Notes under the pieces: model-generated
What the model was told of the DNA's origin: nothing
Seen by the model: the letters and a program-made list of their open reading frames with translations, nothing else
The model's database searches: none
Translations under genes and position numbers: made by a program
Assembly (NCBI GenBank): GCA_964372325.1
Contig: CAYJQG010000001.1
Coordinates: 120-64,119, forward strand
Reading direction: 5' to 3'
Source of the DNA: an uncultured Candidatus Saccharibacteria bacterium
GTDB lineage: Bacteria; Patescibacteriota; Minisyncoccia; UBA6257; JAUSGH01
Length of the DNA: 64,000 bases
In this document: positions 1 to 64,000 of the stretch, one piece after another
How the letters are laid out: every line of letters starts with the position of its first letter
How positions within the stretch are numbered: the first letter of the stretch is position 1

Positions 1-221
1 CAGTCCGTTTATCGAAAAAAACAATAAAAATTGAAGGCCGCGTTGAAGAGGCGCTGCCTGCCACAACATTTCGTATAAAGCTCCAAACCGGAGAGGAAAT
101 ATTGGGGCATCTTTCCGGAAAGATGCGGCTGTATTATATTAAAATTCTTCCCGGCGATCGCGTATTGGTTGAGATGAGTGAATATGACAAGGGGAGGGGG
201 AGGATCATCAGGAGATTATAG
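1..221 (+). CDS. infA: translation initiation factor IF-1, 5' end outside window
   Basis: Frame-3 translation ...KIEGRVEEALPATTFRIKLQTGEEILGHLSGKMRLYYIKILPGDRVLVEMSEYDKGRGRIIRRL* matches the IF-1 S1-fold consensus. Stop TAG at 219-221. Position upstream of rpmJ-rpsM is the conserved one. Confidence 0.75.
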   Translation, partial: VRLSKKTIKIEGRVEEALPATTFRIKLQTGEEILGHLSGKMRLYYIKILPGDRVLVEMSEYDKGRGRIIRRL

Positions 222-265
222 GTGTGGCAATGTTGATATCGCGGCTGCGCCTTCGTCGCTTTTCG

Positions 266-285
266 CCTGCCTGCCGGCAGGCAGG
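266..285. repeat. 20-bp GC palindrome CCTGCCTGCCGGCAGGCAGG
   Basis: Perfect self-complementary 20-mer. Recurs at nine or more sites, often nested in family A and family D elements. Confidence 0.8.
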
Positions 286-330
286 TCGGAGTACCGCCGA
301 GGAGGGTACACCTCCTCAAAGCTCCTCGGC
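285..330 (+). repeat. conserved ~45-nt bulged-hairpin motif GGAGTACC-N-GGGTACACCTCCTCAAG, copy 1
   Basis: gtcggagtaccgccgaggagggtacacctcctcaaagctcctcgg. Confidence 0.55.
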
Positions 331-361
331 TCGCTCGCGATCTCAACATTGCATTTAATAG

Positions 362-396
362 ATTTCGTATATTCGTATTTTTTCGTATTTCGTAGC
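362..396. repeat. family A palindromic repeat (TACGAAATACG type), partial arm
   Basis: atttcgtatattcgtattttttcgtatttcgtagc. Abuts the rpmJ start codon. Confidence 0.6.
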
Positions 397-403
397 TTTA
401 TGT

Positions 404-517
404 ATGAAGGTTCGTGCATCCGTAAAAAAAATTTGTAGTAATTGCAAAATGGTACGGCGCAAGTTGCGCTTGTATGTGAGTTGTAAAAATGTTAAACATA
501 AGCAACGACAAGGATAA
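404..517 (+). CDS. rpmJ: 50S ribosomal protein L36 (bL36), below the ORF-track size cutoff
   Basis: Hand translation gives 37 aa [37 protein letters not shown]. This is the canonical L36 zinc-ribbon with C-terminal KHKQRQG. Location between infA and rpsM is the conserved one. Confidence 0.85.
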
Positions 518-60718: not shown

Positions 60719-60778
60719 AAAATAAAATTTCATACTCAACTTTCTATTTTTCACTGGCATTATGTTATACTAATTTCT

Positions 60779-61882
60779 ATGGATCTTGAACCAACGAATA
60801 ATCAAAACAATGGCGTGCCACGAAGACCACTTCCTCCGCCTCCCCCAATACCACTTCGCCCAGTGCCGCCTCCGGTAGGGGTTCCCACCCCAGTTGAAAC
60901 TGTTCAGAATATGAGTGGCGACGGAATATTGGCCCAAGCACAAAAAACGCCGGTTCCTCCAGGACCCGCAATAAATGTGCGGACATTACAGTCTGACATC
61001 GCCTCAGTTGCTTCAAGTGGTGGCTATGCCCCAGAACCAGAAAAAATTTCCTTCGAAGACATGGAAAATATTTCCACGCAGGCGAAACCTGAATTGACAT
61101 CGCCAGCTTCTCCAATGGCATTGCCGAGCATAGAAAGCGAGCGTGCTTCTGGGGGCAGCGTAATAGGTTGGATTGCCGTCGGCCTACTCGCAGTTGCAAT
61201 GGGTTTTGTGGGGTATTACATAGTCTACCCACTATTGTTTCCGCCGAGGGTAGTTGTGGAAAATATCCAAAATAATAATAAAGCAGTTCCAGGGTCTGTG
61301 CCCACCGCGAAAAAACCAGTGAGCGAAGTTGCGACGCACCGCTCATTGTTTAGTAAGCTTCCCGCAGCACAAGGTACGGTAAAGCTTAAAAAGATAACGG
61401 TAGGCGCGGTGCAGTCTGCGCTAAAAGATGCCGCAGCGACTGCTGCATCGGGGTCAGTGAAGGAGATAGCAATGCAAGACTCTAATGGGCAGATACGATT
61501 TAGTAGTTTAATGAATGTATTAGTCAATATCCCCGAAGAACAGTTGGGGAAAATTGCTGAAGATGATTTTACCGCATTTGTCTATTATAACGAAAAAGGC
61601 GTTTGGCCAGGCTATGTTGCCCGCATGCGTAGTAGCACAACCGCGCTTGAGGCAACAAAGACATTGTCTGCACTAGAGAATAGCGATGTTAAGAGTCTTT
61701 TTCTTGAAGACCCAGGGGAGGAAAGTGAATTTCAGACTGGCCCAGTGAGAGGTGCGCCGATTCGCTACAGTACATTTACGAGTCCTGGCGCATCATTGAA
61801 TTATGGAGTGTTAGGCAACTACATGATCGTGAGCACGTCATTCGATGGGTTTAAGGCAGCAGTACAATTGCTGGGCTTGTAA
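60779..61882 (+). CDS. hypothetical membrane protein with Pro-rich N-terminus
   Basis: 367 aa. PPPPPIPLRPVPPPVGVP tract. Single TM helix (VIGWIAVGLLAVAMGFVGYYIV). Extracytoplasmic domain of unknown function. Confidence 0.5.
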   Translation: MDLEPTNNQNNGVPRRPLPPPPPIPLRPVPPPVGVPTPVETVQNMSGDGILAQAQKTPVPPGPAINVRTLQSDIASVASSGGYAPEPEKISFEDMENISTQAKPELTSPASPMALPSIESERASGGSVIGWIAVGLLAVAMGFVGYYIVYPLLFPPRVVVENIQNNNKAVPGSVPTAKKPVSEVATHRSLFSKLPAAQGTVKLKKITVGAVQSALKDAAATAASGSVKEIAMQDSNGQIRFSSLMNVLVNIPEEQLGKIAEDDFTAFVYYNEKGVWPGYVARMRSSTTALEATKTLSALENSDVKSLFLEDPGEESEFQTGPVRGAPIRYSTFTSPGASLNYGVLGNYMIVSTSFDGFKAAVQLLGL

Positions 61883-61906
61883 AAATATAGAGATCTTTTA
61901 TTGCGA

Positions 61907-62149
61907 TTAATACCTCCGATACGTTTTCTCGTTGCGACGCTCGATTGATACTATAAAGACAGTATCGTTTTTTTTGCTGAAAATAACACGAAAATTTCTT
62001 TTGCGTGCACGAAAGATATCGTGAAAGCCACGCAACTTTTTTACATCAAGACCAACCTAACGCAATGAGATAATTTGCGCGACAAGAAATTCCAAAAGCA
62101 CACGCTCACGAGCGTTAAATTTCGAAAGTAATTTTTTAAGCTCCGCCAT
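61907..62149 (-). pseudogene. RelE/ParE-family toxin gene with in-frame TAG (62057-62059) after codon 30; partner of the upstream Phd antitoxin
   Basis: Minus-strand translation MAELKKLLSKFNARERVLLEFLVAQIISLR*VGLDVKKLRGFHDIFRARKRNFRVIFSKKNDTVFIVSIERRNEKTYRRY*. The C-terminal half matches the RelE/ParE signature. The ATG overlaps the last 12 nt of the Phd antitoxin gene. Missed by the ORF track because of the stop. Confidence 0.55.
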
Positions 62150-62381
62150 TTAATTGACGAATCGCTGCCAAAACGTCGCTCGCCAAAACGCCACGCTTAT
62201 TGATGCGGGTAAAATCAGCAACGGTTTCCCATTGTTCGTGAGCGTCGCTTTGCGGGGAAGAAATAACAAACACCGGCTTCGTACGCCGCACCACGGTAAA
62301 CGATTTCCCTTTACGGACTTGAGCGATATACGTATCAATGTTCGTGCGGAGATCTTTTAGGCCAATAATCTGATTGTTCAT
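62136..62381 (-). CDS. type II antitoxin, Phd/YefM family
   Basis: 81 aa. IIGLKDLRTNIDTYIAQVRKGKSFTVVRRTKPVFVISSPQSDAHEQWET matches the Phd/YefM fold. Confidence 0.7.
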   Translation of the reverse strand: MNNQIIGLKDLRTNIDTYIAQVRKGKSFTVVRRTKPVFVISSPQSDAHEQWETVADFTRINKRGVLASDVLAAIRQLNGGA

Positions 62382-62463
62382 ACTATGAAGTTAACCGGAA
62401 GTTCGACTTGAGTCAATAGACTAGAGCTCTCCGAAATTCTACACGTGAATCCTTGATTTAGTT

Positions 62464-64000
62464 CTATGTTGACCGAACACGGTAATTAAATGCTTCAGCT
62501 AAGTGCGCCTCAGAAACATCGGGTGCTTGTTCAAGGTCGGCGATGGTGCGCGCTACTTTTAAAATTCGATAATAGCTGCGCGCAGATAGTGTACTTTTCG
62601 CCATAATTTGTTCAATAAATGTTTTGCCTTGAGGTGTAAAAGAAATGAGTGTATCGCATTGTTTCGAGGTGAGTTCTGCGTTGGTATGTTGCGTGTGCCC
62701 CGATTGAACTGTTGCGTAACGTTTTTGCTGTGTGGTTCGGGCTGCTCTGATACGCGCGCGGAGTTCGTCGGTGTTATTTATGGTTACGTGAGTATCGCGT
62801 AATGCCGTAAGTGGTGTACGCGGCACGGTGATTTGGATATCGATGCGGTCGAGTAGGGGACCAGAAATTTTCTTTTGATAATTTGCCACTGCATGTGCAC
62901 TGCACGTACATTCTTGGATACCGTCTCCATAAAATCCACATGGGCAGGGGTTCATGGCTGCGACGAGCATAAACCGAGAAGGGAATACCATGTTGCCGCG
63001 CACGCGCGAAATGTGTACCGACCCAGACTCAAGTGGTTGGCGGAGGGACTCGAGAAGGTCGCGACGAAATTCGGGAAATTCATCTAGGAAAAGTACGCCC
63101 CTGTGCGATAAGCTTACTTCTCCGGGACGAGGGTTTGGCCCTCCTCCAATAATGGCGATAGGGGAAGCAGTGTGGTGCGGGGCGCGAAACGGTCGTTCAT
63201 TGATAAAGGGTTGTTCTCCAAGTAATTGTGCTGCACTATAGATTTGCGTCACTTCAATAAGTTCTGGAGTGGAGAGGGGTGGGAGAATACTCGTGAGGGC
63301 TGCGGCAAGCATGCTTTTCCCTGAGCCAGGAGTACCGACCATAAGAATATTATGGGAACCCGCCGCAGCAATAGTAAGGGCGCGTTTGGCAAGTGCTTGG
63401 CCCTTAACTTCGGCGATGTCATGTTTCGGGGTGGTGCTTGTGGCGGTGGGTGAAGTAGTTGGCTGTGGGTTGATGGCAGTGCGTTTTTCAAGGTGCGCAA
63501 TAAGTTCGTGAAGTGTTGCGACGGGCGTAACAGTAATATTGTCGATGAGCGCAGCTTCGGCGGCGTTTGCCAAAGGAACAACAACTTCGGTAAAGCCCAA
63601 CTGTTTTGCGCATTTCGTCATGTTGAGTACTCCATGCACACGACGCACGTTACCTTCAAGTGAAAGTTCGCCAACGAGCAACGTTTTTTCTGTAGAAAAT
63701 TCTTTAAGTTGTCCGGTGGCTAAAAGATAGCCGACGGCAATGGCGAGGTCGTAGTGCGACCCAGTTTTTTTAATATCGGCTGGCGCAAGGTTTACCACAA
63801 TTTTTCGGTTTTCACGCGTTGGAGGCTTAACTCCGATATTTTTGAGCGCAGCGTTAACGCGTTCTTTCGCTTCTGAAAGTGCCTTGTCGGCTAGGCCGAC
63901 AATCGCGAAGGTGTGAAGCCCGACATGGATATCGGTTTCGATTTCAATAAGTCGCGCATCAATGCCCGAGAGCTCGGCGGCATAGACGCGTGAGAAGTTT
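62464..64000 (-). CDS. comM: YifB/ComM-family Mg-chelatase-like AAA+ ATPase; 5' end beyond window
   Basis: Lon-like N-domain continues to the window edge. Walker A GTPGSGKSM, Walker B VLFLDEFPEF, Cys-rich insert and C-terminal MgChl domain. Confidence 0.85.
   Translation of the reverse strand, partial: NFSRVYAAELSGIDARLIEIETDIHVGLHTFAIVGLADKALSEAKERVNAALKNIGVKPPTRENRKIVVNLAPADIKKTGSHYDLAIAVGYLLATGQLKEFSTEKTLLVGELSLEGNVRRVHGVLNMTKCAKQLGFTEVVVPLANAAEAALIDNITVTPVATLHELIAHLEKRTAINPQPTTSPTATSTTPKHDIAEVKGQALAKRALTIAAAGSHNILMVGTPGSGKSMLAAALTSILPPLSTPELIEVTQIYSAAQLLGEQPFINERPFRAPHHTASPIAIIGGGPNPRPGEVSLSHRGVLFLDEFPEFRRDLLESLRQPLESGSVHISRVRGNMVFPSRFMLVAAMNPCPCGFYGDGIQECTCSAHAVANYQKKISGPLLDRIDIQITVPRTPLTALRDTHVTINNTDELRARIRAARTTQQKRYATVQSGHTQHTNAELTSKQCDTLISFTPQGKTFIEQIMAKSTLSARSYYRILKVARTIADLEQAPDVSEAHLAEAFNYRVRST

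Follow-up and report, generated by a model that had tools for sequence, protein, structure and literature searches.

The 64,000-nt stretch of contig CAYJQG010000001.1 analysed here (the window) carries a dense set of short palindromic repeats, which are probably selfish, non-autonomous foldback elements of the miniature inverted-repeat transposable element (MITE) type, mobilised in trans, and among which a 20-nt GC palindrome, CCTGCCTGCCGGCAGGCAGG, forms a separate module. The window has 45% GC, with the majority of its genes on the plus strand, and its gene content and MurA relatives point to a Paceibacteria/Parcubacteria lineage of the candidate phyla radiation (CPR). The closest MurA relatives among GTDB species representatives are 60–69% identical and belong to Candidatus Harrisonbacteria, Paceibacteria, Jorgensenbacteria and other Parcubacteria.

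Repeat load

With the genes mapped from Pfam-supported open reading frames (ORFs), an element is present in 37 of the 46 spacers of at least 50 nt, and the elements total 5.4 kb, which is 54% of the intergenic bases and 8.5% of the window. All are intergenic and non-coding, the families have 2–7 copies of 100–270 nt, and every spacer of the ribosomal-protein operons in the window carries an inserted palindromic repeat. BLAST comparison of the window with itself gave 205 high-scoring matches over 6.9 kb, 5.5 kb of this inverted, and ten dinucleotide-preserving shuffles gave none. A preliminary description of this DNA had claimed dense palindromic families in most spacers, and this holds: all the motifs that it named were found at many sites, for example TACGAAATACG (seven times on the plus and eight on the minus strand), TATTAGAAATT (three and five times by strand) and the terminal inverted repeat (TIR) of family D (at 54188 and 28139). 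It was also right to call the load unusual for such a lineage, as inverted self-similarity covers 8.6% of the window and 0–6% of the relatives. Its multi-copy, non-coding palindromic families in a "compact genome" stand as families, but "compact" itself rests on the inferred lineage.

Clustering gave families A (six copies and a half copy), B (three), C (six), D (three plus two rearranged), E (three), F (two) and G (three), and left about 12 singletons, including element I (one copy plus a fragment) and long palindromes that occur once each, J to R (Table 1). Copies within a family are 70–97% identical and lie in unlinked spacers. The families are distinct but not as unrelated as had been thought, since most share a pattern of 7-nt tandem sub-repeats in their arms and termini of TA/TAG type are common to four of them. 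E, F and G do recur, but as conserved cores flanked by copy-specific inverted repeats.

Elements as insertions

The gene order rpsM-rpsK-rpsD-rpoA-rplQ-rplM-rpsI...murA-mreB-holB...frr...proS-mreB2 is conserved in loci L002–L006 and L012 of the relatives. The spacer from rpsM to rpsK is 5–13 nt in the relatives (L004, L005 and L012) and 123 nt in the window, where it holds an A copy; that from rplQ to rplM is 9–21 nt and 146 nt, respectively, and that from murA to mreB 9–19 nt and 227 nt. Because the excess at all three compared spacers is the element itself, the window elements are insertions. The block from rpsM to the second mreB measures about 10 kb in L005, 13 kb in L003 and 20 kb in the window, which also has two gene blocks that the relatives lack, both bordered and interrupted by elements: about 3.4 kb between rpsI and murA (4537–7996; a gene of unknown function, an S49 peptidase and a HigB-like toxin) and about 5.1 kb between holB and frr (11201–16366; metK and several unknown genes).

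Exact searches of IMG/VR viral contigs with families A, C and D, the G core and the F apex gave nothing, nor did BLAST against about 2.4 Mb of fetched loci, and by this comparison these sequences appear to be private to the lineage. Two Harrisonbacteria loci have different 7-nt-repeat elements of their own in the matching spacers, L003 between rpsM and rpsK and L006 between murA and mreB. Thus, the 7-nt-repeat habit is common to the clade and the families are not.

The absence of a transposase gene from the window, noted previously, was confirmed: no transposase, integrase or HUH domain was found by Pfam among its approximately 60 ORFs, nor by NCBIfam among the 20 ORFs without a convincing Pfam family (about 18 have no assigned family after both scans). 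With no mobiliser among these ORFs, movement, if ongoing, must be driven from outside the window. The preliminary description, which had interpreted the repeats as MITE-like and suggested active mobilisation in trans, is upheld in part: the MITE-like reading is supported, and present-day activity is no more than a possibility. The part that did not survive, a role as punctuation, is taken up below.

Structure and ends of the elements

The window contains 24 arrays of period 7, mostly within arms, with units that include TACGAAA, TTCTAAT, CCAAATN, CACTAGT and TATCGCA. Terminal inverted repeats are seen in A (GGCTACG..CGTAGCC), C (TAGCCAC/GTGGCTA), D (19 nt), F (27 nt) and J (25 nt). The ends of A, C, D and J begin with TA (TAGGCTAC, TAGCCAC, TAGACTC and TAGACCC, respectively), and TA stands on both sides of these elements with no longer target duplication, although it may instead belong to the palindromic terminus. 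The flanking TA pairs of copies A2 and A1 would fit insertion into the TA of an ancestral AACATATGG start context.

In families E, F and G the core is conserved, and the outer stems are perfectly complementary yet different in each copy. The apex of F (about 40 nt) is identical in both copies and the stem around it shows several compensated pair differences; the differences among E copies are likewise compensated. Family C folds as a hairpin over its full length with few uncompensated changes.

A model for the repeats, and points against it

A MITE-like reading of the larger elements is supported by these data. Small non-coding palindromic elements would have filled nearly every tolerated gap of the genome, those of A–G, J and K (100–270 nt) being multiplied at new sites by an enzyme whose gene lies outside the window. 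Judging by the termini, a TA-targeting DDE transposase of the IS630/Tc1-mariner type would be the likeliest candidate for A, C, D and J. The larger elements would survive only between a stop codon and the next promoter or start codon, and would be transcribed passively within operons; the complementarity of their arms and the extension of their outer stems may come about by intrastrand template switching or gene conversion. The GC palindrome would insert precisely into other elements, 7-nt arrays and intergenic DNA, and in other genomes into coding sequence, probably moving, by enzyme action, as a single-stranded hairpin. Nothing in the analysis points to a benefit for the host.

Several observations weigh against this model. 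The nearest genomes are only 60–69% identical in MurA, and empty sites there indicate insertion at some time, not current activity. The different 7-nt-repeat elements in the relatives' matching spacers also fit growth in place. Neither an autonomous partner element nor a transposase or HUH/RAYT gene turned up in the window, scans of viral contigs for the ends of A, C and D were negative, and across about 170 loci the GC palindrome has no recurrent neighbouring gene. A TA duplication is inseparable from the TA of a palindromic terminus, and the conserved core with copy-specific termini of E, F and G is the reverse of a classical MITE. Finally, the one-sided changes in family C are more often G-U-compatible (about 15) than A-C (about 5), which hints weakly at constraint at the RNA level.

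The 20-nt GC palindrome

Five perfect copies of CCTGCCTGCCGGCAGGCAGG occur in the window, at 266, 3505, 9380, 32856 and 54302, together with 6–7 degenerate copies, all intergenic. As had been reported, it is nested in A and D copies, and we find it also in one G copy and in palindrome O (32810–32912). What the preliminary description overlooked is that it is a separate, cross-lineage element that is not private to this genome. With up to two mismatches allowed, five of the 21 closest Patescibacteria loci (0.34 Mb in all) contain it and 59 other loci (0.93 Mb) lack it; exact copies were found in 47 stretches from IMG/VR and at least 120 from metagenomes, in loci that span 29–71% GC. Two composition-matched control palindromes gave no matches. 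BLAST against plasmids (7.3 Gb) and phage genomes (2.3 Gb) gave no match over the full 20-mer, and our literature search found no paper with the 20-mer or the peptide LPAGRQ (below). Its density is one per 6 kb in the window versus about one per 50 kb in the relatives.

Filled and empty sites differ by precisely 20 nt, with neither duplication nor footprint. Such pairs are found in the window in A (1019 empty, 3467 filled), D (25862 empty, 54189 filled) and G (33633 empty, 228 filled), and elsewhere between L099/L116 and L090 and in paralogous pairs within L163, L189 and L176. Degenerate copies decay without compensating changes, and variants recur at identical positions in copies of a family. 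Most copies are single, and the pairs that exist directly adjoin one another (6099/6119, 9360/9380 and 15581/15601); REPIN-type inverted doublets at a fixed spacing were not seen. There is no conserved GTAG-like head or other flank motif, as flank matrices over 167–169 distinct sites gave weak preferences only. The palindrome does lie preferentially in short tandem arrays, mostly of period 7 (23%, compared with 4% for random positions; p = 2e-12). When intergenic controls are the reference, the figures are 31% versus 17% for all arrays and 22% versus 7.5% for those of period 7 or 14 (p = 0.004). A 7- or 14-nt target duplication was rejected in favor of this array preference, as just 4 of 167 sites are flanked by an exact direct repeat of 7 nt or more.

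The only gene families that recur within 3 kb of the palindrome are those common to related phage contigs, with no RAYT among them, although a one-per-genome gene would easily be missed. An autonomous element with half-sites as its ends was considered and discarded, because the isolated half-sites are mutated copies. In L126 (3926–4135), about ten 21-nt units (GCCATGCCTACCGGCAGGCAGG...), a variant of the palindrome head to tail, stand in tandem at the contig end. A further motif (..CCCGTTAGAGGC.. with its complement) lies beside the palindrome at L153:276, L213:1097 and L245:1657, and is present as inverted repeats in related Paceibacteria loci (L006:6571–6803 and L013:8065–8201); its recurrence suggests that further repeat families are common to several genomes.

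In low-GC contigs about 40% of the copies lie within ORFs, and translation continues through them, in nearly every case as x-LPAGRQ; the window itself has no in-frame copy. The proteins concerned, all from other genomes, include AtpA, SecA, PheS, LysRS, PurH, UvrC, LigA, a Y-family polymerase, a copper-ATPase-like P-type ATPase, EF-P (Jorgensenbacteria) and ProRS (Harrisonbacteria). Alignments to solved structures have a gap at the palindrome of seven residues in AtpA, six in EF-P, four in SecA and seven in LysRS. The proS gene of the Candidatus Harrisonbacteria locus L003 (16743–17998) contains two variants, each flanked by heptamers. The one at 17764 is in frame (..LEIRN LSAGRQ DEKLEIRK..), and the one at 17030, flanked by TTACCAA, shifts the frame, which is restored by deletion of exactly 20 nt; this could reflect a pseudogene, a split gene, an assembly error or RNA-level bypass. 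Despite this case, a mini-intron removed from RNA was rejected as a general explanation, as ORFs are generally intact with the palindrome in place and broken when it is taken out. Two related IMG/VR stretches (L112:2204–2383 and L084:8536–8715) have the palindrome in the variable loop of a tRNA-Met gene, which ARAGORN calls as a 92-nt tRNA. Recurrent insertion into tRNA genes was not sustained, since this is the one complete case and those in L201, L207 and L123 are 5′ fragments.

We tentatively suggest that CCTGCCTGCCGGCAGGCAGG may be an undescribed, ultra-small (20–21 nt) mobile palindrome of Patescibacteria and viruses, which makes no target duplication, prefers 7-nt arrays and repeat elements, and is tolerated in frame as LPAGRQ in essential genes. 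Such precise insertion without duplication would resemble what is seen in HUH-type transposition of single strands or in the small dispersed repeats of Nostoc. If the suggestion is correct, it would imply an undescribed mobilisation machinery or sequence-recognition system in the superphylum, and the 7-nt-repeat palindromes of the window would be a landscape created or exploited by that machinery.

Alternative explanations

We consider it unlikely that the larger elements are RNA or DNA structures selected by the host (operon punctuation, RNase III sites, attenuators or protein-binding hairpins) and multiplied because they are useful. They are placed exactly at gene boundaries, including those of ribosomal-protein operons, compensated changes maintain their hairpins, and the conserved cores and variable closing stems of E, F and G are as in structured RNAs. 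Element I is far more stable on its transcribed strand (−102.8 kcal/mol on the plus strand versus −80.0, with nine G-U pairs) and looks like a strand-specific RNA. It is an exception, since over 38 elements the differences between plus- and minus-strand folding energies sum to about zero with no consistent preference, and RNA-level strand bias was rejected on this ground. Predicted terminators (a GC hairpin plus T) lie apart from the elements, for example at 5984–6005, 18163–18180 and 15100–15118, in numbers no greater than in shuffles, and the elements have no T tails. The elements are thus not intrinsic terminators, and the "transcriptional or RNA-processing punctuation" offered earlier as a possible role finds no support here. 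In the Rfam search of the window two tRNAs alone scored above threshold; relaxed matches are of generic hairpins to microRNA-precursor models, plus a weak Alpha_RBS, and known RNA families were therefore set aside. Moreover, the same operons in the relatives run with spacers of 5–20 nt, the families are private to the lineage, and degenerate copies decay uncompensated.

For the GC palindrome itself, a recognition signal (a DNA-uptake sequence or the binding site of a conserved protein) spread by biased uptake and recombination is a doubtful alternative. The uptake sequences of Haemophilus and Neisseria have the same preference for one frame in ORFs, so that such a role would explain the nearly constant LPAGRQ. 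The sequence is identical across genomes whose MurA proteins are about 60–69% identical to that of the window, and it was found only in uncultivated lineages, with no full-length match in 9.6 Gb of plasmids and phages. A signal fits poorly, however, with precise 20-nt indels between otherwise identical sequences and with 6–7-residue insertions in proteins. The low density in the relatives and the commonness of degenerate copies also speak against it, as does the perfect palindrome, which is unlike known uptake signals.

Origin in place, in which slippage builds 7-nt arrays and template switching turns them into growing palindromes with little transposition, seems to us rather improbable as a full account. 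The period-7 arrays in the arms, the perfect copy-specific outer stems and the differing elements in the relatives' spacers are what it would produce. On the other hand, copies that are 85–97% identical over 130–190 nt in unlinked spacers require copying between sites, and the termini are sharply defined and common to the copies. Growth in place is probably a contributor to the MITE-like elements and not the whole story.

Faulty assembly (collapsed or chimeric contigs, or adapter-derived sequence) is scarcely credible as the source of the repeats: the exact 20-mer was seen only in metagenome-derived assemblies and contigs often break at such repeats, but gene order agrees with the relatives throughout the 20-kb region tested, the copies are diverged (70–97%) and not collapsed, a 3.8-kb contig of the independent Logan assembly that begins inside palindrome P is 100% identical to 58551–62348, mutated 20-mers sit at identical positions in family copies, and the 20-mer is in frame within conserved proteins, which only selection can produce.

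Other features of the window

The ribosomal-protein cluster end identified by Pfam comprises infA, rpmJ, rpsM, rpsK, rpsD, a short rpoA, rplQ, rplM and rpsI, and other genes are murA, two mreB paralogues, mreC, a PBP2-type penicillin-binding protein gene, metK, frr, proS, dnaG, rpoD, a short alaS, rpsO and pnp. A cyanobacterial origin was ruled out, as the HIP1 sequence GCGATCGC occurs just four times in the window, which is not significant, and MurA and the gene content indicate Paceibacteria.

An Rfam match to the alpha-operon ribosome-binding-site leader lies upstream of rpsM (531–655; 29.3 bits, below the gathering score of 38). The 192-nt inverted duplication that includes two C copies (44998–45188/47722–47913) brackets 2.5 kb with an unknown gene and dnaG, and is a possible substrate for inversion. 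Element J adjoins the 3′ end of a 72-nt tRNA at 35896–35967, and tRNA-Pro(GGG) begins 4 nt past J; the former is called as Ser (anticodon TGA) and, unusually for a bacterial tRNA-Ser, is without a long variable arm. Two inverted copies (36440–36541 and 39155–39266; 81% identical) of a segment of about 110 nt, which contains an extended −10-like TGTTATAAT, lie upstream of a pair of convergent genes whose families are unknown (36555–37439, plus strand; 37680–38939, minus strand). The segment resembles a duplicated promoter or leader more than a palindromic element. An ORF of 819 residues on the minus strand (29573–32032) encodes a single protein with CN-hydrolase, NAD-synthase and cytidylyltransferase-like (NMNAT-type) domains.

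Table 1. Coordinates and structure of the palindromic elements (GCP, the 20-nt GC palindrome; strand in brackets where assigned)
Element	Position	Structure	Location
A	354–403	partial, one arm	between infA and rpmJ
A	1019–1125	hairpin arms of TACGAAA heptamers; no GCP ("empty" reference)	between rpsM and rpsK
A	3467–3607	GCP 3505–3524; TA flanks 3464–3465 and 3607–3608	between rplQ and rplM
A	9314–9489	two adjoining GCPs, 9360–9379 (degenerate) and 9380–9399 (perfect)	between murA and mreB
A	15517–15650	inverted pair of degenerate GCPs, 15581–15600 and 15601–15620	
A	57404–57493		upstream of rpsO
A	57757–57900	21-nt terminal sub-repeats	downstream of rpsO
B	3946–4066	palindrome of TTCTAAT/TTAGAAA heptamers	between rplM and rpsI
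B	16178–16335		upstream of frr
B	24194–24312		upstream of tpiA
C	7203–7339 (+)	137 nt, TAGCCAC...GTGGCTA, hairpin over full length	
C	11198–11333 (+)	right terminus duplicated as TAGTGGC heptamers, 11325–11341	downstream of holB
C	45030–45165 (+)	with flanks (44998–45188) a 192-nt, 96% identical inverted duplicate of 47722–47913	
C	45824–45960 (+)		upstream of dnaG
C	47745–47881 (−)	inverted orientation	between dnaG and rpoD
C	49131–49264 (+)	left end overlaps stop-codon region	downstream of rpoD
D	25862–26023	no GCP; ends TAGACTTG...CAAGTCTA	
D	27971–28159	GCP variant 28088–28107	
D	54189–54369	perfect GCP 54302–54321; 19-nt TIR	
D, rearranged	6014–6151	left half, GCPs 6099–6118 and 6119–6138, degenerate right part; central segment deleted	
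D, right half	12011–12083	begins at GCP variant 12011–12030	
E	12117–12274 (+)	conserved core of ~115 nt, copy-specific outer stem	
E	13812–13955 (+)		immediately downstream of metK
E	34350–34504 (−)	23-nt perfect copy-specific outer stem	
F	12357–12552	~40-nt apex identical to other F copy; stem differences compensated	
F	53525–53732	27-nt perfect TIR (the "27-bp TIR" of the preliminary description)	
G	228–346 (+)	GCP 266–285 inserted after TTTCG	between infA and rpmJ
G	16943–17060 (−)		between frr and M50 peptidase gene
G	33633–33736 (+)	no GCP ("empty" reference)	
I	56062–56238 (+)	177-nt hairpin; partial copy 52878–52927	
J	35968–36236	269 nt, 25-nt perfect TIR (T)AGACCC...	fills gap between two tRNA genes
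K	4514–4731	218-nt compound palindrome; each arm itself a hairpin	rpsI end
L	19448–19521	CACTAGT heptamers	between proS and second mreB
M	28343–28398	perfect, 56 nt	
N	32166–32207	perfect, 42 nt	
O	32810–32912	perfect GCP (32856–32875) in centre	between rpsF and ssb
P	58515–58577	AATTAAG 8-mers	upstream of pnp
Q	527–609	TATCGCA heptamers; overlaps sub-threshold Alpha_RBS match	upstream of rpsM
R	52760–52799	perfect, 40 nt	

Significance and comparison with known systems

Genomes of CPR bacteria/Patescibacteria are regarded as minimal, with little mobile DNA. Inserted palindromes make up more than half of the intergenic DNA here, so that a strongly reduced genome can bear a large burden of selfish DNA. 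Short-read assemblies break at such repeats, and the completeness of CPR genome bins may be biased in consequence. The GC palindrome is the most unexpected component of the window, a rare case of an element below 25 nt that behaves as mobile; it is a concrete probe for the enzyme or uptake system that recognizes it and a possible lineage marker.

Bacterial MITEs include the Correia elements of Neisseria and IS630-related MITEs such as Nezha in cyanobacteria. Like these, the window elements are non-coding, multi-copy sequences of 100–270 nt with TIRs and TA boundaries, which lie between genes, are co-transcribed with their neighbours and have no transposase nearby. They are not related to them in sequence, and differ in being mostly whole-length hairpins with arms of 7-nt units, in the conserved cores and copy-specific termini of E, F and G, and in their host, Patescibacteria, for which our literature search found no report of MITEs.

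REP, BIME and REPIN elements are mobilised by RAYT tyrosine transposases (PMC3116915). The GC palindrome is like REP and BIME sequences in being short, GC-rich, extragenic (in the window) and numerous, single or in adjoining pairs, and in forming mosaics with other motifs. It differs from them in that it is a perfect palindrome of 20 nt, mostly single, with no GTAG-like head and no RAYT seen, and in that it is found across very distant genomes and inside ORFs. Closer in scale are the small dispersed repeats (SDR, 21–27 nt) of Nostoc, reportedly described together with STRR heptamer repeats by Elhai and colleagues in 2008. These too are tiny and hairpin-forming, seem to insert precisely, nest in other repeats and keep company with tandem heptamers, but they belong to another phylum and have other sequences, whereas here one exact 20-mer covers a far wider range both of hosts and of GC content (29–71%) and also lies in frame in housekeeping genes.

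The dRS3 repeat of Neisseria is a genus-level element that serves as a target for phage integration, a role with no counterpart seen here. In the dRS3/NIME mosaics, as in the window, a 20-nt palindromic repeat punctuates larger arrays of intergenic repeats, although the sequences are unrelated. Rickettsia palindromic elements are 100–150 nt long and add 30–50 residues to proteins. They and the GC palindrome are alike as palindromic selfish DNA that is tolerated in frame in essential genes as an extra surface peptide; the GC palindrome adds 6–7 residues, and its in-frame copies are in other genomes and not in the window. DNA uptake sequences, lastly, occur at about one copy per kb with an orientation bias, and arise by substitution and not by insertion. 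The GC palindrome differs from them in its density (one per 6 kb in the window and about one per 50 kb in the relatives) and its precise indels, but its preferred reading frame does match theirs.

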